Shown: in pieces, positions 1 to 8,036 of the stretch
Layout: every line of letters starts with the position of its first letter
Position numbering within the stretch: position 1 is the first letter of the stretch
Notes under the pieces: model-generated
What the model saw: the letters and a program-made list of their open reading frames with translations, nothing else
Database searches by the model: none
Told to the model about the DNA's origin: nothing
Source of the DNA: a virus
Lineage: Duplodnaviria > Heunggongvirae > Uroviricota > Caudoviricetes
DNA length: 8,036 bases
IMG/VR virus record: IMGVR_UViG_2534682255_000011
Location: 1-8,036 of that record
Direction: 5' to 3' (one strand)
Position numbers and translations under genes: made by a program

Positions 1-1531
1 TTACCGACGACATGAGATAGCCGCAGAAGTCCACCAGCGAATCCCCCTCACGCTTTATCGCCAGTGCTTCTTCTGATTTCTGCTGCTCATATAAAAGGCG
101 TCTGGCTTCGTCCTGATCAGCAAACCGTGTAAGCAGATGACGAATCACTACAGCAAGCTCACCTTCTATTTTTTCCGGCAGCATCGGATCGCGTTCGTTT
201 TCCGGTACAACCTCCGAAAAATTGAATATCACACGACGACGTGAGATCCCCCCGCTGCGGTCACTGAATGACATGGCGCTGTTGTTAACCGCCAGCACAA
301 CCGCCGGAATACGCGTTGAGTATGGCGCTTTGTGTTTCGGGTCAATTGCCACCTTGTCACCGCCCGTAATGGCCTTTATCCCTGCACCATCACCCGCGTA
401 GCGGGTCATATCCGGCAGAATAATCAGTGAAAAGCCAACCACTAATGCGCGTTCCCTTGCATCCTCCAGTGCCTTCATGCTTGCCGATACCGTGTTGGCC
501 TTACCTGCCAGCATGGTACAAATCTCCGCCATAACACTTTTACCGCTTCCACCAGGACCTGTTACCTCAATGAATAACTGCCAGTCGTACCGGTTCGCCA
601 GCACCATGAATAACGCCGCCAGTACGCGATCTGCCTTGCGGTCATTCTCAGCCACCGAACGGCGCAACCACTTCCAGAAATTCGGCGCATGTGTTGCCAG
701 CGTTTCCCCCTCTGCTGGTGGGCTGAAAGGTAATTCACTGGCAATTAACAACCAGTCGTTTTTGTTATGCTCCCGAAAATTACCAGTTCTGGTATCAAAT
801 ACCCCGTTACTGAATCCAATCAGGTTACGGGCTGCATTCCCCATTACGGGCAAACTTAACTTCATGGTATCGACCGCCGATTTGATGGCGTTCTGCGAAT
901 AGCTGATTTCCGCATCAATAAAAATCTGCGCCATAGTCCGCTGTAACTCTTTATCCTGTACCGGCTCCCATACAACACCGTTGTAGTGGTGAACGGTGTC
1001 AGAATCCGCATTGATTGCCAGTTCACCGCCATAATGTGCCAGGAGAACTTCGCCGCGCTGGCTTGCTCCCATCTGGTTAAGTGCCAGTGGTGTCGCGCTG
1101 TCTTCTGTTTTTTTCTTTGCCGGAAACCGGATAATCAGTCCGTCATCAATGTTTTTACGCTCACGGGCAAGGTATTCACGCCAGTTCTCACACTTCTGGC
1201 TGTGCATGCCATCAGGGTAATAATTCGCATTCTGTATACTTGCCGCCGCCAGCTTCTGACCAATTGCCTTAACCATTACAGGATCTAACTGTCCGGCTCT
1301 GAATATGCGCGCGGATGTGCGCCCATCAGGCACTATTTGCAGATTTCCGATCTCTTTCAGTTGTTCATCAGCCAGCACAACAGGTGGCTCATTATCTCCA
1401 GCCATACGCGCATCGTGTTCCTGCCATTGTTTCGCGTGTGCCCAGGCATCACTACCCGCGAAAATAATTACCTCTGTGTCTTTGTGTTTTATTCCGCGTG
1501 GCTGTTTTTTTACGTTCGGTGCCAGTTTCAT
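1..1531 (-). CDS. Replication protein, P4-family primase C-terminal domain with SF3-type helicase P-loop (P4 alpha-like); partial, C-terminus lies beyond window start
   Basis: Minus-strand frame is open from the ATG at 1531..1529 to position 1 with no stop; the ORF track omits it because it is incomplete. The translation contains a Walker A motif (VTGPGGSGKS) and the motifs LIGFSNGVFD, ITGGDKVAIDPKHK and RRRVIFNF, which are typical of the phage/plasmid primase P4-type C-terminal domain. The start overlaps the upstream ORF stop (ATGA at 1528-1531). An upstream G-rich run (GGGGGG) could serve as RBS. Confidence 0.8.
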   Translation of the reverse strand, partial: MKLAPNVKKQPRGIKHKDTEVIIFAGSDAWAHAKQWQEHDARMAGDNEPPVVLADEQLKEIGNLQIVPDGRTSARIFRAGQLDPVMVKAIGQKLAAASIQNANYYPDGMHSQKCENWREYLARERKNIDDGLIIRFPAKKKTEDSATPLALNQMGASQRGEVLLAHYGGELAINADSDTVHHYNGVVWEPVQDKELQRTMAQIFIDAEISYSQNAIKSAVDTMKLSLPVMGNAARNLIGFSNGVFDTRTGNFREHNKNDWLLIASELPFSPPAEGETLATHAPNFWKWLRRSVAENDRKADRVLAALFMVLANRYDWQLFIEVTGPGGSGKSVMAEICTMLAGKANTVSASMKALEDARERALVVGFSLIILPDMTRYAGDGAGIKAITGGDKVAIDPKHKAPYSTRIPAVVLAVNNSAMSFSDRSGGISRRRVIFNFSEVVPENERDPMLPEKIEGELAVVIRHLLTRFADQDEARRLLYEQQKSEEALAIKREGDSLVDFCGYLMSSV

Positions 1532-1770
1532 TTTTTCCCCCCTGCAACCAGCATTTCACGGATTTTGCGGATATAGCTTGCTGCACGTTTTTGATTTACG
1601 GCTTTATAATGGTCCACCAGCGTAAAATCACGGCGGTAGGTGATATTGCCTGGCGTAACGTGACGAATAACCACTCGTCCCCCACGTCTGGTGTCGCGGT
1701 AAATATCTCCGAGTCTGATTTCAGGCCGAGAGAGACCGCTGGCAGTAAAGCCAGAATTTTTCTTTTTCAT
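1528..1770 (-). CDS. Hypothetical small basic protein (80 aa), translationally coupled to the primase gene
   Basis: Complete ORF in the track. ATG at 1770 is preceded by AGGAAA about 8 nt upstream. Its stop overlaps the primase start (ATGA). No recognisable motif. Confidence 0.5.
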   Translation of the reverse strand: MKKKNSGFTASGLSRPEIRLGDIYRDTRRGGRVVIRHVTPGNITYRRDFTLVDHYKAVNQKRAASYIRKIREMLVAGGKK

Positions 1771-1800
1771 AGTTTTATTTTCCTGTCAGCAGTTCCGGTT

Positions 1801-1974
1801 TTATTTCCGCACGAATACAGAGTTCAGAAAAAATTCAGGAGAACCAACAATCTCATTACTTTTCAGTCGGCATTGTGATTTCACTTTCCCTTTATCCAGG
1901 TAAACCAGTACGCGTCCGGTGAAATCATCTGGCACATTAAGCACTACGGGTACATGCGCTTCATGATTATGCAT
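1801..1974 (-). CDS. Hypothetical small protein (57 aa)
   Basis: Not in the ORF track (below its length cut-off). Hand translation gives MHNHEAHVPVVLNVPDDFTGRVLVYLDKGKVKSQCRLKSNEIVGSPEFFLNSVFVRK with no internal stop. ATG at 1974 is preceded by GGAGGA with an 8 nt spacer and overlaps the stop of the upstream 197-aa gene (ATGCATAA). Confidence 0.4.
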   Translation of the reverse strand: MHNHEAHVPVVLNVPDDFTGRVLVYLDKGKVKSQCRLKSNEIVGSPEFFLNSVFVRK

Positions 1975-2560
1975 GGCTTACATCCTCCGTGAATTTTCTT
2001 CTGTAACGCGTCTCTGCCACATATTCCGCATAGTCCGACGCAATACTAAGAATCATTTCACCCTCTGACTTGTAGCCACTGGTATTGATAAGAAAATATG
2101 CAGCTTTCATCATGTCAGCAACGCTCAACAATGCGCCCGCTGCATCTTCCGGTGCGCCATCAAATTCCCGTTTCAGGGAATTAAAACGATCATCACGCAT
2201 GTTTACCCCCCCCTGAATGACCTGATAACCGCAACTGGTCAGCAATTCGATAAATTCCGGCAGTGTGCCGAAACAGCAATCATCACGCAGACGTTCGCGG
2301 GATACTTCAACGCCGTTTTCGTAGTGACTCACCATGCGTCCGGTAAAATGCAGATCATCATCGTGATGGCACGTTGACGGCTTAATCAGTCGCGCACGTT
2401 CCGCCAGTTCCAGCAATGCTTCAACGCTTCCGGCAATTGCACCATCCGGCAGGTGATAATTACTTACCACGCGTCCATTCTCCACGTTGACCAGTAGCTG
2501 CCCGGAAAATATCTCGTCAAACTGAATGCTGTTAAGGTCAGAAATTGACAGGTTATGCAT
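1967..2560 (-). CDS. Hypothetical protein (197 aa) of unknown function with Cys/His/Asp-rich segments
   Basis: Track ORF 1967..2578. The internal ATG at 2560 (MHNLSISD...) is preferred because AGGAGG lies 6-7 nt upstream and it overlaps the upstream stop as ATGCATAA. No family recognised by eye. Notable segments are CHHDDDLHF and RDDCCFGTLPEF. Confidence 0.6.
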   Translation of the reverse strand: MHNLSISDLNSIQFDEIFSGQLLVNVENGRVVSNYHLPDGAIAGSVEALLELAERARLIKPSTCHHDDDLHFTGRMVSHYENGVEVSRERLRDDCCFGTLPEFIELLTSCGYQVIQGGVNMRDDRFNSLKREFDGAPEDAAGALLSVADMMKAAYFLINTSGYKSEGEMILSIASDYAEYVAETRYRRKFTEDVSHA

Positions 2561-2777
2561 GGTGCACCTCCTGCACATCAGCCATGATAATTTTTCCGGC
2601 CTTATCCAGTGCCTGATCGGCTTTTAGCTGCACAAATGCTAAATAATGGAAGATGCATTCTGATTCTCTGGCTGCGTGTTTATGCGCCACACCAGCGATA
2701 GCAGAAATCTCAATAAGTGAATCCATCAGCGTTTTGATAGCGTCTACCGCTGCATCAGGCCATGTTGCATTACACAT
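2553..2777 (-). CDS. Hypothetical small protein (74 aa)
   Basis: Complete track ORF. ATG at 2777 overlaps the stop of the upstream 67-aa ORF (ATGTGTAA). A G-rich SD-like sequence (GGGGGTGG) lies just upstream. Its 3' end carries the SD for the next gene. Confidence 0.5.
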   Translation of the reverse strand: MCNATWPDAAVDAIKTLMDSLIEISAIAGVAHKHAARESECIFHYLAFVQLKADQALDKAGKIIMADVQEVHHA

Positions 2778-2973
2778 GTTCCACCCCCTGACGAATACGG
2801 GCGGCGAATACCATCACGCAGCCAACTGGGGATTGCTGGCGTGCTTCCTGTTCGCTGGTGGCCTCAATGGTAATCACGCGCGGTTGTGCCGTGCTCAGGG
2901 CGATAAAACGCCAGGTGAATTTATTCAGGTTGTGCAAGTCCCGCCCTTGCGGGTGTGTGGTATGATTTCTCAT
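2770..2973 (-). CDS. Hypothetical small protein (67 aa), first gene of the early operon; possibly Kil/Icd-like cell-division inhibitor (tentative)
   Basis: This is the C-terminal 67 codons of track ORF 2770..3513. The internal ATG at 2973 (MRNHTTHPQGRDL...) is preferred because GAGGT lies about 5 nt upstream and the long N-terminal extension would run through the promoter/operator region and the antisense of the divergent gene. The Kil/Icd-like call rests only on position (first small ORF of a P4-like early operon) and a vague resemblance (KFTWRFIALS...VMVFAARI). Confidence 0.45.
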   Translation of the reverse strand: MRNHTTHPQGRDLHNLNKFTWRFIALSTAQPRVITIEATSEQEARQQSPVGCVMVFAARIRQGVEHV

Positions 2974-3008
2974 AGCTACCTCGATACTGTTGCTATCGTT
3001 GGTGGTCA

Positions 3009-3043
3009 GAGGCTGCGAAAGGACGGCAATCCTTTTCAGCCTC
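3009..3043 (-). promoter_or_regulatory. Stable imperfect hairpin in the 5' leader of the early operon
   Basis: GAGGCTG-cg-AAAGGA-cggcaa-TCCTTT-t-CAGCCTC: a 7 bp outer stem and 6 bp inner stem separated by a small bulge. It lies 36-70 nt upstream of the 67-aa ORF start. No U-tract follows on the minus strand, so it is not a canonical intrinsic terminator. Confidence 0.3.
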
Positions 3044-3068
3044 GTTTGCATTGAGTGATAAACACTCA

Positions 3069-3150
3069 ACTGGATTCCAGTATAATCACTAAGTGGAATC
3101 CACTTCAAGCGTTTTGTTTTGGTCTTTTTCGTGTATACTGGATTCCAGTA
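3069..3150. promoter_or_regulatory. Divergent promoter region with three related palindromic operator-like sites
   Basis: Perfect inverted repeats at 3069-3081 (ACTGGA-T-TCCAGT), 3091-3105 (AAGTGGA-A-TCCACTT) and 3136-3150 (TACTGGA-T-TCCAGTA), sharing the core TGGA-W-TCCA. Candidate -10 hexamers overlap them: TATAAT at 3081-3086 and TATACT at 3134-3139 on the plus strand, and on the minus strand TTGAAG (complement of 3104-3109), an 18 nt spacer, then TATACT (complement of 3079-3084). Confidence 0.5.
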
Positions 3151-3169: not shown

Positions 3170-3349
3170 ATGGAAAGAGACCATATCAATAACAAATCAC
3201 AGAAATTACAGGCTCGCGCCCCGCATGAAGTTGTTGAGGCTATGGAGCAAGTAAAAGAAACAGGCGAGAGCACTGCGCAATTTATCGTTACAGCCATGCG
3301 AGGCGAGATCAAACGCCGCCAGCGCCGCAAGGCCAAAGAAGCGGAATAG
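3170..3349 (+). CDS. Small DNA-binding protein, ribbon-helix-helix-like (59 aa); putative regulator of the divergent promoters
   Basis: Not in the ORF track (below cut-off). ATG at 3170 with AAGGGA 7 nt upstream; TAG at 3347-3349. Translation is MERDHINNKSQKLQARAPHEVVEAMEQVKETGESTAQFIVTAMRGEIKRRQRRKAKEAE. The pattern fits a beta-strand, helix, turn, helix Arc/CopG-type layout with a basic tail. It is the only plus-strand gene and diverges from the operator region. Confidence 0.55.
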   Translation: MERDHINNKSQKLQARAPHEVVEAMEQVKETGESTAQFIVTAMRGEIKRRQRRKAKEAE

Positions 3350-3437: not shown

Positions 3438-3470
3438 GGCGACCTCTGATCCGGGTCGCCTTTGTTTTGT
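3438..3470 (+). terminator. Rho-independent terminator downstream of the RHH-like gene
   Basis: GGCGACC / GGTCGCC 7 bp stem (3438-3444 and 3454-3460) with a 9 nt loop, followed by TTTGTTTTGT. The minus-strand orientation lacks a U-tract. Confidence 0.5.
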
Positions 3471-4051
3471 CACTGAATGCGGTTGCCAAAGTAAAACTCA
3501 GGCTGATATTCACGTATCAGCCTTTTTTCTTCTTCCTCCAGCTCACGCTTTTTGCGCTTACATGCCTGTAGCTCCCTCCCCTTCTGACTGGCACTTAACT
3601 GATATTGCTCTTTACGGCGAGAAAAGTCCTGTAATGCGCCCCACGGGATACCATAAGCCCCCGTTTTTCTGATTCCTGGTATCACATTCCTGAATACCCA
3701 GTTACTGAAACGATGGGCGAACGTGCCAGGAGTAACAGCTTTCCGACTTCTGGCGATCAGCTTGTAAAAACCGGATTCAGAAATGAGGCTATGATTTGGA
3801 TTTCCTCGAATACCGTAGCTTAAAGCGACGGTTTTCTTTTCATCCGCATCTAGTGCTTTTAGAGCATCGCGTGAGTTACTTATTTCCAGAGCAACACAAA
3901 CATCCTTTGCAACAAACCACGGATCGCCGTTCAGATACACCACGCGAACGTTCACACTATCAAAGCGCAGAACGACCAGATCACGAAAATCACAGAATTT
4001 TTTTACATGACGTGCGTCACCCTTGCCCGTCACGGCAATATTTTTATTCAT
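3470..4051 (-). CDS. Bro-N domain protein (phage antirepressor-like), 193 aa, with charged coiled-coil-like C-terminus
   Basis: Complete track ORF. The N-terminal region VRVVYLNGDPWFVAKDVCVALEI...ALKALDADEK matches the Bro-N signature. The C-terminal about 50 aa is K/E/R-rich. Confidence 0.8.
   Translation of the reverse strand: MNKNIAVTGKGDARHVKKFCDFRDLVVLRFDSVNVRVVYLNGDPWFVAKDVCVALEISNSRDALKALDADEKKTVALSYGIRGNPNHSLISESGFYKLIARSRKAVTPGTFAHRFSNWVFRNVIPGIRKTGAYGIPWGALQDFSRRKEQYQLSASQKGRELQACKRKKRELEEEEKRLIREYQPEFYFGNRIQ
3500..3530 (+). terminator. Second plus-strand intrinsic terminator-like hairpin, embedded in the 3' coding end of the Bro-N gene
   Basis: AGGCTGATA / TATCAGCCT 9 bp perfect stem (3500-3508 and 3515-3523) with a 6 nt loop, followed by TTTTTTCTTCTT. 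Confidence 0.4.
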
Positions 4052-4110: not shown

Positions 4111-4314
4111 TTAGTGGGGATTGGCCTGTTCTCGTTGTTTATCTAACCATGCTTCTACATCTCTACGGTGCCAGGTATGTCGTCGTCCAATTCTGAACGG
4201 CTGAGGAAAACCATTATTCTCATCTTTCCAGAAATTGATGAATGCACTCATTGCTCCATATCGCAAGATTTTCATTACGTCTTTAGTAAATAAAATATCT
4301 TCATTGGTATTCAT
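4111..4314 (-). CDS. alpA: AlpA-family (Vis/excisionase-like) small DNA-binding regulator
   Basis: Track ORF 4111..4335. The ATG at 4314 (MNTNEDILFTKDV...) is preferred because GAGGAGG lies 8 nt upstream; the 4335 start would overlap the int stop and has a weak RBS. Small size, position immediately downstream of a P4-type integrase, and a basic/aromatic C-terminal half fit AlpA-like regulators. Confidence 0.7.
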   Translation of the reverse strand: MNTNEDILFTKDVMKILRYGAMSAFINFWKDENNGFPQPFRIGRRHTWHRRDVEAWLDKQREQANPH

Positions 4315-4327
4315 TTGCTGAACCTCC

Positions 4328-5566
4328 TCAACCATTTACTACTCTTAAACCTTTCATACCACCGGATCTATTAATTACCCCTTTTCTCGCATCATCAAAA
4401 AAATCACCGACCCATTGCATCATGATCTTACGCTGTTCTAGATAAATAGTTCTATTATAAATATCTCTTATTTTATCACCACTTTTATGCGCCAATGCAG
4501 CCTCGATTACATCGGGGTTAAATCCCTCCTCATTTAAAAGCGTACTCCACATTGAACGAAAACCATGTAACGTTACAATCCCTTTGAACTTACTGGCAGC
4601 AATTGGGGTCTTGATAGTATTCCTCCCCATAGGCGCATCTTTTGTTCTGGAGGAAAAAAACACATAACGCCCTCTTTTTATTTCCTGCATTGTTCTGAGG
4701 ATACTAATAGCCTGTGATGACAAGGGAACAACATGTTCACGATGGCATTTCATTTTATGCGCGGGGATAATCCACAAGCCAGAATCAAAATCAATCTCTG
4801 ACCACTCTGCTTTAATCGCCTCACCTGGCCTGACCATTGTCAATATCTGGAATAAAAGTGCATTATGAGCTATTTGATAGGTATGAGGCACACTATCCCA
4901 CCAGCTCAGAAATTCAGGCAATCTTTCAACAGGTAGTGCTGCTAATGATTTATTTTTCTTTCCTGTGAATGCAGTCTTTATCTTAAGTAATGGATTTGCT
5001 TTCAATGCTCCACAATTTACAGCATAATTCATAATTTCATTTAATCTTGATATTAATTTTTTTTGCAACGCATTCTTATCGGATACGGCATCCAGAGCAT
5101 TAATAGCTACTGGTGCTGTAATTTTTTCTATACTGTACTTACCAAAGAAAGGAACAAGATATTTGTATACTTCATATTCGATATTATACAGCGTAGGTTT
5201 CCGCAATTCAGATCCCTTTTTAAAAGCGAACCATGCATTAGCAACAGCTTCAAATGTCTGTAGATTTTTTAGTGACATCTCAATTTTACGATTTTTCTTC
5301 TCCGTCACTGGATCAACTCCACGTGCAATCATTCGCCGAAGTTCATCACGTACTTCCCGTGCTTCCGCGAGTGAGAATTCAGGAAAACGTCCTATCGTGT
5401 ATGTCTGCCGTTTCTTCGTTATCGGATGGCTATAACGGAAACGCCACACTTTCCCACCGGCTTTACTCACATTCAGCAATAAACCGAACCCATCATAAAC
5501 GGCATAGTCCTTTTCACGTGGTTTCATCCCCTTAACTTCAGTCACGGTTAATGGCTTTACCGACAT
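4328..5566 (-). CDS. int: Tyrosine site-specific integrase, P4-like
   Basis: 412 aa. The N-terminus (LTVTEVKGMKPREKDYAVYDGFGLLLNVSKAGGKVWRFRY) matches the arm-binding domain of P4-family integrases. The C-terminus has HGFRSMWST...IRDIYNRTIY, consistent with the catalytic H/R/Y region. GAGGG lies 6 nt upstream of the ATG. The gene is visibly AT-rich compared with its neighbours. Confidence 0.9.
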   Translation of the reverse strand: MSVKPLTVTEVKGMKPREKDYAVYDGFGLLLNVSKAGGKVWRFRYSHPITKKRQTYTIGRFPEFSLAEAREVRDELRRMIARGVDPVTEKKNRKIEMSLKNLQTFEAVANAWFAFKKGSELRKPTLYNIEYEVYKYLVPFFGKYSIEKITAPVAINALDAVSDKNALQKKLISRLNEIMNYAVNCGALKANPLLKIKTAFTGKKNKSLAALPVERLPEFLSWWDSVPHTYQIAHNALLFQILTMVRPGEAIKAEWSEIDFDSGLWIIPAHKMKCHREHVVPLSSQAISILRTMQEIKRGRYVFFSSRTKDAPMGRNTIKTPIAASKFKGIVTLHGFRSMWSTLLNEEGFNPDVIEAALAHKSGDKIRDIYNRTIYLEQRKIMMQWVGDFFDDARKGVINRSGGMKGLRVVNG

Positions 5567-5727
5567 CTATCGCCCTCATTTTTTAGTCCGTCATGTAGTC
5601 CATTCAAGCCAATAACAAGCGATAAACTAACTCATTATCAAGCAAAGAGAGGAAACTCATAAAATCACAACTCATTGAAAAGACTATGAAACGACACCAG
5701 AACATACAAACAGGTAAGAAATGTACC

Positions 5728-6735
5728 CTACATCCAAAATGACGCAATCCGGGAGTTTCGTGGCGTTCCGGTGATACTGCCGTCCGCCGCCGCCCGTTCA
5801 CCTTCACGAAGCCAGATCCCCTGGTTATTCAGTTCGCGTTTCTGCTCAGGGGCAATCAGCCCGCGACAATGCGGACACATCAGACGGGCAGCCTGACCGG
5901 CAGCCACAAAATCCGGGTTATTCCGGTATCCGGTCATGTTATCCATCACCGGCTGAAAATATTCCCCGCAGTGCGGACACGGCCAGTACCACCGGCGGCG
6001 GTCTCCCCGGTTATACAGTGACAGGATCCCCGTTGTTGGCGGTGCCTCATGTGCGCCACCACAACGCCATTTGGTATCGGTGATATCCCGCCCCGGTGAA
6101 CTCTCGACCAGGGTCATCCCCGAGGACATAAAGGTGGTGGTACGCTTTGAGGCCAGCGTGAAGGCATCCCCTTCCCCGTCCACATTTTCAGGGAAACGGT
6201 CATAATCCGTCAGCGCCACACGACGGTAATCCGAAGAGGAAAAGACGGTGATCGACGGCCAGCCAATCTTCAGGAAGGAGCCGTCAAGAAACATTTTATC
6301 GTGGACGTTGTTGTCATTACGGGAAGGACTGAGGCGCTTGCTGACCTCCGGACTGTGGCGAAACGTCCTGGAAAGACGCGTTCTGGAATGCTCACGCGCC
6401 TTCGTCTCAGTCATCTGCACCACCAGCATATCCGCCGGATCACAGATGATGCCGTACACAATCCAGCCATCAATCAGCCCTTCGGTTTTCCCGGTTCGCG
6501 CAGGTCCCACAAACACCACCGCGTCATATTCACGGGCTGATAATGTATTAATGGGGTCAATCATATAGGGCGTCAGCGATGACTCCCACGGACCGGAAGT
6601 ATTGGCTCCCCGTGGAACCCGCATATAACGCCTGATGGCTTCCGCTACTGGTAACCGGCTGGGTGGGCGAAACAGCGAGGCCACTTCGCGCCAGATATCG
6701 GATGCGCGGCTATGGCTCTCGTTCACCTGATTCAC
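5728..6735 (-). pseudogene. Terminase large subunit (lambda gpA-like), N-terminal 335 codons only; truncated
   Basis: The translation aligns by eye with the lambda gpA N-terminus as recalled from memory (SLFRP near the start; CPHCGE zinc-ribbon-like motif; GIWLREG), and VFVGPARTGKTE looks like a P-loop. The ORF stops at 5728 at roughly half the length of lambda gpA, and the 160 bp downstream are AT-rich non-coding sequence running into int. The track start is GTG at 6735, overlapping the Nu1-like stop (GTGA). Confidence 0.8.
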
Positions 6736-7208
6736 ATATCGGCCTCATCACAACAGTCAATGACTGCCTTTTCCAGTGTGTCGCGGATCTCATCAACCAC
6801 AATCTGTACTTCATTCAGTTGTGATGCAGTCCACCCCCTGTCCCTCTCCAGCCGGTCAGGCCAGGTTTCCAGTACCTGAACTATCGCTTTCACCACGACA
6901 GAAAAGGACCGCCTGACATCACTGACTGGCACAAGCTGAACAGTTTCATGCTGAAATTTAAGACGCTCGCGCTCGGACTGATACCATGCCTTACGAGCGT
7001 GAGGATCCATATCCTCATCTTCGGAAGATGGTGGTTTTTCCAGCAACGAAGTTATCAAATCCGTCAGGAGATACAGTTTTTTCTTTTCATTACTGCCTGG
7101 TGCAAGAGGAACATCCGCCATTCTGGCGGCAACAGTCTGCCGGTGCAGACCTGAAAGGGCTGCCAGTTGATTAATATTTAACTTCATATTTTTCAGCTCG
7201 CCGTCCAT
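6732..7208 (-). CDS. Terminase small subunit (lambda Nu1-like)
   Basis: The N-terminal KLNINQLAALSGLHRQTVAARMA resembles the Nu1 HTH region (lambda EVNKKQLADIFGASIRTIQNW, from memory). GGAGGG lies 6 nt upstream of the ATG at 7208; an alternative start at 7187 (MKLNIN...) aligns better with lambda. The stop overlaps the terminase large subunit start. Confidence 0.8.
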   Translation of the reverse strand: MDGELKNMKLNINQLAALSGLHRQTVAARMADVPLAPGSNEKKKLYLLTDLITSLLEKPPSSEDEDMDPHARKAWYQSERERLKFQHETVQLVPVSDVRRSFSVVVKAIVQVLETWPDRLERDRGWTASQLNEVQIVVDEIRDTLEKAVIDCCDEADM

Positions 7209-7384
7209 TTACATCCCTCCACATAAACCGCAGAACAGAAGTGACTCTGTTTTTTTGTAAAGAAATGCCGCCATATAAAGATGTCGAACAAAAAACAACC
7301 ACAATCATCATCTTTTTAATACTAACAGCATTAAAAACAACAAGTTACCATCATGATGATGATGACGATAAAATCACAAAAATG

Positions 7385-7420
7385 CGCCTTTTTCCGCGCC
7401 CGCCCGCCCCGTGTTCAGGC
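7385..7420. other. Candidate lambda-type cos site (cosN-like GC-rich core) upstream of the terminase small subunit gene
   Basis: Minus-strand reading gives GGGGCGGGCGGGCGCGGAAAAAGGCGCATTTTTG, resembling the lambda left end GGGCGGCGACCTCGCGGGTTTTCGC (from memory). It lies about 180 bp upstream of the Nu1-like start and is followed by an AT-rich tract. Exact cut positions are not determinable from sequence. Confidence 0.4.
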
Positions 7421-7669
7421 CCACCCCACCAGGAGGACCCGCAAAAATGATAATGGTTATCATTTGCAACAAAATCCAGTTTCTTCCACCATCGCACCGG
7501 ACTGGCGACTATGAGGGGACAACACCGCGCTCCGTTAACGCGGTAAACCCCGGTGTGTATCGTTTTTGATTATCCCCGCACACTCTCGCAGAGGAGTCTC
7601 CCTGTCGGGCTGCGGTCTCTGTTAATGCAGGAATACGGCGACAATACCGCGCATGAATAATAAGGTCGC

Positions 7670-7894
7670 TCAACACACTGGCTGTAATGCAGCGGATACC
7701 ATGCGGCATTTAGCGGCATTCATCGTACACTCAACGGTTAGCTCTTCATTCGTGGCATTCACCTGAAAGGTCCTGGAGTGTAATTGCGTACATTTACCAC
7801 TGAACGAACCTTCAACAAGAACACGACCACGCTGCAAAATACGGAACGGAATTGTTCCCTGAAAAGGCTTTACGGTTACCAATAATTTCTTCAT
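7670..7894 (-). CDS. Hypothetical small protein (74 aa) between the lysis module and cos
   Basis: Track ORF 7670..7912 begins at TTG. The internal ATG at 7894 (MKKLLVTVKPF...) has GGAGAA 5 nt upstream. Four Cys residues; no recognisable family. Confidence 0.4.
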   Translation of the reverse strand: MKKLLVTVKPFQGTIPFRILQRGRVLVEGSFSGKCTQLHSRTFQVNATNEELTVECTMNAAKCRMVSAALQPVC

Positions 7895-7917
7895 GCATTC
7901 TCCGAATAACAAAAATA

Positions 7918-8036
7918 CTAGTTAATACACTGAGTGCGGATATATTCCTGAAGCATTCTCAATGCTGCCTGGTCGCTGATGATTCCGTCTCTGATACCGA
8001 GAACGTTTCGTCCAGCAACCGGAGAGAGTTCGACGG
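7918..8036 (-). CDS. Rz-like i-spanin, C-terminal fragment (partial; start beyond window end)
   Basis: Minus-strand frame is open from the window end to TAG at 7918-7920. The C-terminus ...AALRMLQEYIRTQCIN resembles the lambda Rz C-terminus ...QKQLEGTQKYINEQCR (from memory). Its position just upstream of cos and Nu1 is as expected for a lambdoid late region. Confidence 0.45.
   Translation of the reverse strand, partial: VELSPVAGRNVLGIRDGIISDQAALRMLQEYIRTQCIN

Follow-up and report, generated by a model that had tools for sequence, protein, structure and literature searches.

The stretch of DNA that was analysed (8,036 nt, hereafter the window) carries all of its main genes on the minus strand and is read from position 8036 to position 1. 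The end of a lysis module is followed by a cos site, by the gene of the small terminase subunit (terS) and by the N-terminal half of the gene of the large subunit (terL), which ends at the attL junction of an inserted element, referred to here as the satellite. The prophage that contains the insertion is referred to as the helper. Within the satellite, genes for an integrase (int), an AlpA-like protein, a Bro-N domain protein and several small proteins lead to the gene of a primase-helicase, within which the window ends. The YlcI/YnfO gene is the sole plus-strand gene of the satellite. A tRNA scan of the window returned no tRNA gene and no tRNA attachment site, the att site being situated within terL, and a scan of the window for P4-like CI, seqA or other RNAs gave no Rfam match at E ≤ 0.1. 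The small satellite ORF at 1775-1974, between a 203-aa ORF and the DUF4222 gene, is annotated with a frameshift in the O157 and O103 relatives. The coordinates of the features are collected in Table 1.

Table 1. Features of the window and cos copies at the far end of the satellite. Positions refer to the window, except for those marked L001 (O157 relative).
Feature	Position	Strand	Remarks
Lysis-module end and small ORF	7670-8036	minus	
cosQ-like heptamer GGGTCCT, helper prophage cos	7434-7440	minus	Identical to lambda 48473-48479
cosN core CACG/GGGCGGGCGGG/CGCGG	7394-7413	minus	Aligns with lambda ACG/GGGCGGCGACCT/CGCGG
cosB-like region, cosN to terS	7209-7393	minus	Inverted GATGATGAT repeats, block TTGTTTTTTGTTC
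terS, small terminase subunit, 158 aa, DUF1441 family	6732-7208	minus	PF07278, E = 3.8e-48; phrog_141 'terminase small subunit', E = 6e-66
terL, N-terminal (ATPase) half, 335 aa, gpA-type	5728-6735	minus	PF05876 GpA_ATPase, E = 6e-82
attL crossover core TTGGATG (minus-strand reading)	5731-5737		Same heptamer at attR, L001 15302-15308
Satellite attL arm, between core and int	5567-5730	minus	Same arm adjoins the Mu-like terL in L019
Satellite tyrosine integrase, 412 aa, P4-type arm-binding domain	4328-5566	minus	Pfam Arm-DNA-bind_3, Phage_int_M, Phage_integrase
AlpA-like HTH protein, putative excision/activator role	4111-4335	minus	Weak HTH_17 match below the Pfam cut-off; RefSeq: HTH regulator
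Bro-N domain protein, satellite 'Bro zone'	3470-4051	minus	PF02498, E = 1e-18; phrog_2593 anti-repressor
YlcI/YnfO-family small protein	3170-3349	plus	RefSeq label of identical gene; no Pfam match
Icd-like protein	2770-2973	minus	Within zone 1528-2973
Small ORFs between Icd-like and DUF4222 genes	within 1528-2973	minus	
DUF4222 protein	1528-1770	minus	Same zone as the Icd-like gene
Satellite primase-helicase, N-terminal 510 aa, runs off the window end	1-1531	minus	D5_N and DUF5906 domains
Proximal satellite cos	L001 18678-18697	co-oriented	Between SSB and small ORF plus protease-capsid fusion
Distal satellite cos	L001 16142-16160	co-oriented	Between protease-capsid fusion and 93-aa ORF, near attR

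A GC-rich stretch at 7385-7420 had been described in a sequence-only reading as a cosN-like core. It proved to be the core of a larger site on the minus strand, in which cosQ, cosN and a cosB-like part follow one another in the lambda order. Judged by its sequence, the segment 7394-7440 is the cosQ–cosN portion of a lambda-type cos that belongs to a lambdoid helper prophage, the cosB-like part reaching as far as terS. The site is located between the lysis module (7670-8036) and terS (7208), upstream of terS–terL. Its minus strand reads ...AATGATAACCATTATCATTTTTGC-GGGTCCT-CCTGGTGGGGTGGGCCTGAACACG-GGGCGGGCGGG-CGCGGAAAAAGGCGC..., and the lambda junction reads ...GATGATAATCATTATCACTTTAC-GGGTCCT-TTCCGGTGATCCGACAGGTTACG/GGGCGGCGACCT/CGCGGGTTTTCGC.... 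The GGGTCCT of lambda at 48473-48479 is the cosQ of that phage, an assignment ascribed to Wieczorek and Feiss.

Homology with lambda places the predicted nick between 7410 and 7409, which would leave a cohesive end of about 11 nt; a lambda-type cosN gives 5' cohesive ends of 12 nt. The distance from cosQ to this nick is 24 nt in the window versus 23 nt in lambda, and the terS ATG (7208) lies 201 nt past it, the corresponding position of lambda Nu1 being +191. The spacer between GGGGCGG and CGCGG comprises 5 nt in the window versus 6 nt in lambda and in most relatives. Between cosN and terS, a 190-nt AT-rich stretch contains inverted GATGATGAT/ATCATCATC repeats at 7355-7363 and 7304-7312. The GATGATGAT repeats flank an AT-rich palindrome and, by analogy with the R3-I1-R2 layout of lambda, may act as R elements. 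A consensus search of the cosB-like region gave no match to the perfect IHF consensus (WATCAANNNNTTR).

The site thus resembles lambda cos in its location between lysis genes and terS, in the cosQ heptamer, in ACG/GGGCGG and CGCGG, in its polarity and in its association with a TerL of the gpA family. It differs from lambda cos in the central cosN sequence, which is unlike that of lambda and 1 nt shorter, and in the cosB-like part, in which the repeats are of the GATGATGAT type rather than lambda R elements and a consensus IHF site is absent. A further difference concerns TerS. The gene behind cos had been called Nu1-like, and this is correct with respect to its position after cos, whereas the protein is assigned to DUF1441/phrog_141 and not to the Pfam family Phage_Nu1. 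In lambda, packaging runs from cos toward the small and then the large terminase gene. The packaging direction through terS and terL into the element, which had been proposed for the window, is fixed by the order cosQ–cosN–cosB–terS, with packaging toward decreasing coordinates. The suggested location of cos about 1.7 kb upstream of the element also holds (1,672 bp from the predicted nick at 7409 to the attL core at 5737). This distance results from terL being the second gene after cos and not from a need of the satellite for that site.

A Fur-box-like palindrome (GCAAATGATAACCATTATC; 7449-7467, minus strand) is located just upstream of cosQ; it agrees with the consensus at 16 of 19 positions and was obtained in 0 of 200 shuffles. 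Inspection by eye indicates a corresponding element in lambda, again with agreement at 16 of 19 positions, and apparently also in mEp213, phi458, Flotzy and Kp4865-4.

It is extremely improbable that the GC-rich stretch is no cos at all and represents a small coding gene, a terminator or a chance GC island. RefSeq does list a plus-strand hypothetical protein across the site in the O103:H2 relative (L014, 20249-20521, equivalent to window positions 7241-7513), and several phage records are annotated likewise. Close relatives differ, however, by indels of 1-2 nt inside the core; these are incompatible with a conserved reading frame and render a coding role very unlikely. Conservation tracks the cosQ and cosN blocks of lambda. 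The lambda-derived pattern GGGTCCT-N(20-26)-ACGGGGCGG has a single occurrence in the window, and none of 200 shuffles contained it. With regard to a terminator or an RNA, a promoter/terminator scan of 5500-8036 gave no terminator-like site at 7385-7420, and no Rfam matches were obtained.

The conserved blocks can be followed through related phages. Those designated cosQ, CACGGGGCGG, CGCGG, TCATCATCATCAT and TG(A/T)(T/C)GA are common to eight phages with the same TerS/TerL type and are partly present in lambda; an alignment showed that TCATCATCATCAT and TG(A/T)(T/C)GA are kept across phages with a DUF1441-type TerS. The cosQ heptamer is kept in eight of ten related cos regions, the remaining ones carrying GGTACT. 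Over the 70-nt cosQ–cosN core, the window is identical to VT1-Sakai/Sp15, and 141 nt are 99.3% identical to VT1-Sakai. The TerS and TerL types are also those of VT1-Sakai/Sp15 and of related EHEC Stx prophages. Unlike the gene in the window, terL of VT1-Sakai is uninterrupted, and other Stx2 prophages differ by a cosN spacer allele that is 1 nt shorter (GCGG). A cosN spacer of 6 nt is present in most isolated phages and in the O121 helper, one of 5 nt in the window, in VT1-Sakai and in the proximal satellite copy, and one of 4 nt in Stx2 prophages, in the O103 helper and in the distal satellite copy. Spacers of 4, 5 and 6 nt in otherwise near-identical cos sites point to cohesive ends of variable length or to flexible nicking.

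The linear record of the relative mEp460_4F5 starts 5 nt upstream of the point that corresponds to the nick and lends weak but independent support to virion ends near the predicted nick. The end of the mEp460 record was also considered as a physical DNA end and was rejected, because this record is not cos-permuted; only mEp460_4F5 breaks near the predicted nick. A full-text literature search with the cos core sequence returned unrelated papers only.

The structure of terL was derived from close relatives of the window, namely E. coli O157:H7 strain 3-5-1 (99.1% identity over 7.65 kb) and O103:H2 strain 129 (98.5% identity over 7.95 kb). In the O157, O103 and O121 relatives, the C-terminal (nuclease) half of terL is located on the far side of the element and is followed by the portal, protease-capsid and tail genes; such a split terL, with the C-terminal half beyond the insert, was found in four genomes. 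The insert comprises 10,429 bp and has the core TTGGATG at both junctions. Joining of the flanks gives a continuous, in-frame TerL ORF of 707 aa, and many other E. coli prophages have an uninterrupted terL that matches the reconstructed attB (507 bp) with 100% identity. The precise insertion and the identity of the rejoined site show that terL is interrupted, not decayed, and that excision would restore it; the earlier description of the gene as truncated has to be replaced by that of an intact gene split by the insertion.

The attL junction was detected in 57 of 5,426 complete E. coli genomes and in six IMG/VR contigs, and the junction of the satellite late zone with the C-terminal half of terL in 121 genomes. 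About 470 further E. coli genomes matched the probe used, mostly with the uninterrupted terL allele alone. The insertion point (5728-5740) coincides with the boundary of the gpA ATPase and nuclease halves. The N-terminal fragment (terL') ends cleanly, its stop codon (TAG) directly after the core being supplied by the satellite arm, and the ATG of the core is in frame and forms the first codon of the C-terminal half. Given the clean stop and the in-frame ATG, the composite of helper and satellite might express separate ATPase and nuclease fragments. A promoter/terminator scan predicted no terminator between terL' and int, that is, in the attL arm.

The insert is a phage-inducible chromosomal island (PICI) of 10.4 kb that is located in terL in the same orientation as the late operon, and it is therefore a helper-embedded PICI. 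The PICI architecture is present, with int, an alpA-like gene, a Bro zone, primase and SSB genes, and a late zone that includes a capsid homologue. No terS was found within the 10.4-kb element. The ClpP-protease/major-capsid fusion of the satellite (L001, 16218-18107) is 52% identical to that of the helper (10503-12482); with this degree of divergence it is regarded as a diverged homologue and not as recently captured, and the protein could affect head assembly or head size. Several copies of GGTGAACAGT-type repeats are present at L001 19526-19700, just downstream of the primase gene, which is the reported site of PICI replication origins.

A copy of the satellite was also found, co-oriented, in a Mu-like prophage (L019, E. 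coli OkiPb01677; 1513-3075, 3241-13400 and 13421-13534). It is inserted in the gene of a gp28-like large terminase, about 36 codons short of the gene's end, and the satellite integrase is identical at 410 of 412 positions (99%). The attB of this prophage (GGCTTCATCCTGGATGAATCAGCC) is identical to the gpA-type site at 16 of 23 positions, and the site is either a secondary one or another terminase target. The integrase appears to represent a second and independent lineage that is directed at prophage terminase genes, namely the gpA-type terL and a secondary site in a Mu-like terL.

The window ends within the primase gene, and the satellite cos copies were seen in relatives with 98.5-99.1% identity to it. 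A second cos at the far end of the element had been anticipated; in the closest genomes, two were found there. They have the orientation of the helper cos, from which they are separated by 8,716 and 11,253 bp, and each of the four satellite copies examined contains the pair. Compared with the window, the distal copy shows 98% identity over cosQ–cosN and 81.5% over the cosB-like part. For the proximal copy, the identity to the window in cosB is about 60%; this copy is nearer to the mEp460 type (about 70% vs 60%), and in three of the four satellites it has AGGTACT as cosQ. In place of the Fur-box-like palindrome, both copies have a GC hairpin with a T-run.

The agreement between helper and satellite sites varies with the strain. 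In the O157 relative L001, the helper cos core equals that of the window, and its spacer (GCGGG) contrasts with those of the satellite copies (GCGG and AGGGG), so that helper and satellite cores are unlike in length, by 1 nt, or in sequence. The helper cos of O103:H2 is identical to the distal satellite cos from cosQ through the first R-like block. The cosB-like region of the O121 helper (L018, 1986-2241) resembles neither satellite copy (10514-10769 and 13052-13307), so that a match of helper and satellite cos is not universal. A dual specificity, with two satellite cos copies for two helper types, was considered as well and found to be weakly supported, since the O121 helper cosB fits neither copy. 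Two cos sites around a capsid gene are also the layout of EcCICFT073; the satellite cos copies are thus to be regarded as standard equipment and not as evidence of packaging in situ.

Behind the distal satellite cos, an ORF of 93 aa (L001, 15679-15960; phrog_1561) starts 196 nt past the site. It occupies the position equivalent to terS, and the ATGs of the two genes align. All of its 842 homologues are labelled 'hypothetical', and its AlphaFold model consists of three helices (pLDDT 72.6). The assignment of this ORF as TerS or Rpp was rejected: BLASTP against TerS gave no similarity, and a Foldseek search of the PDB gave nothing below E = 1.9. PDB sequence searches for an Rpp homologue with the 75-, 81- and 93-aa ORFs of the late zone and with TerS returned noise only; in PICIs of the EcCICFT073 type, Rpp steers TerS to a satellite cosB that has diverged.

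One of the IMG/VR contigs with the attL junction (L027, a UViG of 10,904 bp) has its start about 93 nt past the helper cos nick and its end about 256 nt short of the distal satellite cos, as calculated from the position of the junction. The location of its ends inside cos-like repeats suggests an assembly break rather than virion ends; cos repeats of about 190 bp probably break short-read assemblies, and such breaks could pass for virion ends.

It is concluded that the satellite probably excises, replicates and is packaged from its own cos. Two cos sites, the packaging of multimers into heads of full size and an embedding in helper late genes are already known for PICIs, which makes this cycle the likely one. 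In EcCICFT073, two cos sites are functional, the packaged DNA is phage-sized, and cos sites are skipped until the head is full (PMC6092414); for 11capE, precise excision after replication of the composite has been described (PMC10111431). In the proposed cycle, the composite would be induced and would replicate, and late transcription would proceed through cos, terS and the N-terminal fragment of terL into int and alpA. The satellite would then excise at TTGGATG, and terL would be rebuilt. The DUF1441-type TerS and the gpA-type TerL would bind the helper cos, nick it with formation of cohesive ends of about 11 nt, and package helper DNA from this site toward terS. The satellite would be packaged from its own cos copies, one of which duplicates the helper-type cos of EHEC, probably as multimers of about four units in full-size heads. 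The composite of strain 3-5-1, located at yehV/mlrA, spans about 57.5 kb, and the helper is therefore about 47 kb in size; four satellite units (4 x 10.43 kb) amount to 41.7 kb, or 89% of this length. If the capsid fusion changed the head size, the prediction of multimers would be altered.

A different route had been put forward in the sequence-only reading, in which terminase supplied in trans would cut the helper cos, package terS, terL' and the unexcised satellite, and stop at a satellite cos. The product would be an island-bearing chromosome of 8.7 or 11.25 kb. The geometry permits this route: two co-oriented cos copies are present at the predicted far end, the helper and distal satellite cos of O103:H2 match as described above, and a product of 11.25 kb would come near the 10.43 kb of the satellite itself. 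Carriers have several homologous prophage places (seven in the H33 record; up to five copies of the terL region in other genomes), which makes terminase in trans plausible, and amplification of the composite before excision has been reported (PMC10111431). The route is nevertheless not parsimonious, and its probability is judged to be low. Its product would correspond to 18-24% of the helper of about 47 kb, far under the needs of a lambda-type head, for which termination requires a near-full head (about 75-105% of the genome length). The phage-sized particle DNA and the skipping of cos sites in EcCICFT073 (PMC6092414) also argue against such short products. Being equipped with attL and lacking attR, the product could form no attP for integration. 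In L001, cohesive ends derived from one helper and one satellite site would mismatch, the spacer being GCGGG in the helper cos and GCGG or AGGGG in the satellite copies. The same satellite, with both cos copies, resides in the Mu-like prophage without an upstream cos, and it has the full set of int, alpA, primase and ori for a cycle of excision, replication and packaging. Furthermore, it is stated that phages of the cos type do not carry out lateral transduction (PMC12829572).

It is equally improbable that unexcised composites are cut at mixed pairs of helper and satellite cos, for which the near-exact and co-oriented copy of the helper-type cos in the satellite would provide the basis. If this were the case, the segment from helper cos to satellite cos would form a mini-chromosome of 11.25 kb with terS, terL' and all satellite genes, and the segment from satellite cos to the next helper cos a head-filling chromosome of about 46 kb without terS, the N-terminal half of terL and the satellite body. 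Such cutting would amount to an undescribed form of cis-acting helper interference or hitch-hiking.

The locus could also be a relic, that is, a decayed prophage with a cos and an embedded satellite that are no longer mobilised; this is regarded as unlikely. Prophages of EHEC are frequently defective, and the majority of those in O157 have defects (PMC2669165), one satellite ORF is frameshifted (1775-1974), the cosN spacer is below the 6 nt usual in isolated phages, scans of public viral (IMG/VR) and metagenome contigs gave no excised attP junction, and no particles were obtained for the published pair of helper and embedded PICI (PMC10111431). On the other hand, the halves of terL are intact, form one reading frame when joined and show 100% identity with the uninterrupted alleles. 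The int, alpA-like, primase and SSB genes and both cos sites are also intact and near-identical in the O157, O103, O121 and Mu-like contexts, and near-identical intact copies in four prophage contexts indicate recent mobility. Finally, an identical cos core is present in Sp15, a prophage with a marker that was transferred in lysates (PMC2669165).

Of 5,426 complete E. coli genomes, 57-121 (about 1-2%) contain the satellite. The carriers encountered were mainly O157:H7, O103, O121 and other strains of the EHEC type, in which the spread of Shiga-toxin and effector genes is governed by the mobility of prophages. A satellite that silences the helper terminase until excision and carries the helper packaging signal would affect which prophage DNA leaves such strains.

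In comparison with P4/P2, the satellite is of similar size (about 10-11 kb) and has an integrase of the P4-type fold, a D5/alpha-like primase-helicase and a helper-type cos. It differs in its site, P4 being integrated in a tRNA gene, and in that P4 redirects capsid size via Sid; homologues of Sid, Psu and delta and the P4 CI RNA were not detected in the satellite (CI RNA: no Rfam matches).

The PICIs of the EcCICFT073 type with cos sites (Fillol-Salom 2018 and 2019; PMC6092414, PMC6739421) correspond to the satellite in the lack of an own terS, in the two cos sites that flank a capsid-gene homologue, in the reliance on helper terminase and in the int–alpA–primase architecture. They differ from it in three respects: a PDB sequence search of the three small late-zone ORFs revealed no Rpp here, one satellite cos here is a copy of the helper cosB-like region (81.5%) rather than a diverged one, and the satellite here is integrated in its helper and not at a chromosomal site.

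The closest counterparts are the 491 helper-embedded PICIs reported by Tommasini, Mageeney and Williams in 2023, which reside at 14 sites within the late genes of prophages, have the orientation of the late operon and excise after replication of the composite (PMC10111431). The position of the AlpA-like gene after int is as in PICIs of Gram-negative bacteria (PMC10111431). The founding member, 11capE in prophage 50icd (PMC10111431), agrees with the satellite in gene order (int, HTH, Bro/YlcI/Icd zone, DUF4222, primase, SSB and capsid homologue), in the primase (604 aa in full length, 82% identical) and in a cos-like sequence common to satellite and helper. The integrase is 25% identical to that of 11capE, and the doubled attP motif TGTATTGC-N4-TGTATTGC, which was recovered in both arms of 11capE as a positive control, was not found in the satellite. 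The target differs from those of the 11capE clade as well: it is a gpA-type terL, whereas every published 'A' site belongs to Terminase_1, and the accessible supplementary text of PMC10111431 has no mention of 'GpA'. The cos site itself is an ordinary, textbook one, and the embedded arrangement was already described in 2023; the new target, the divergent integrase and the missing att motif identify the satellite as a new site with a distinct integrase lineage within this known kind, and the combination of a gpA-type terL target with a distant integrase suggests more than one origin of the embedding in helper late genes.
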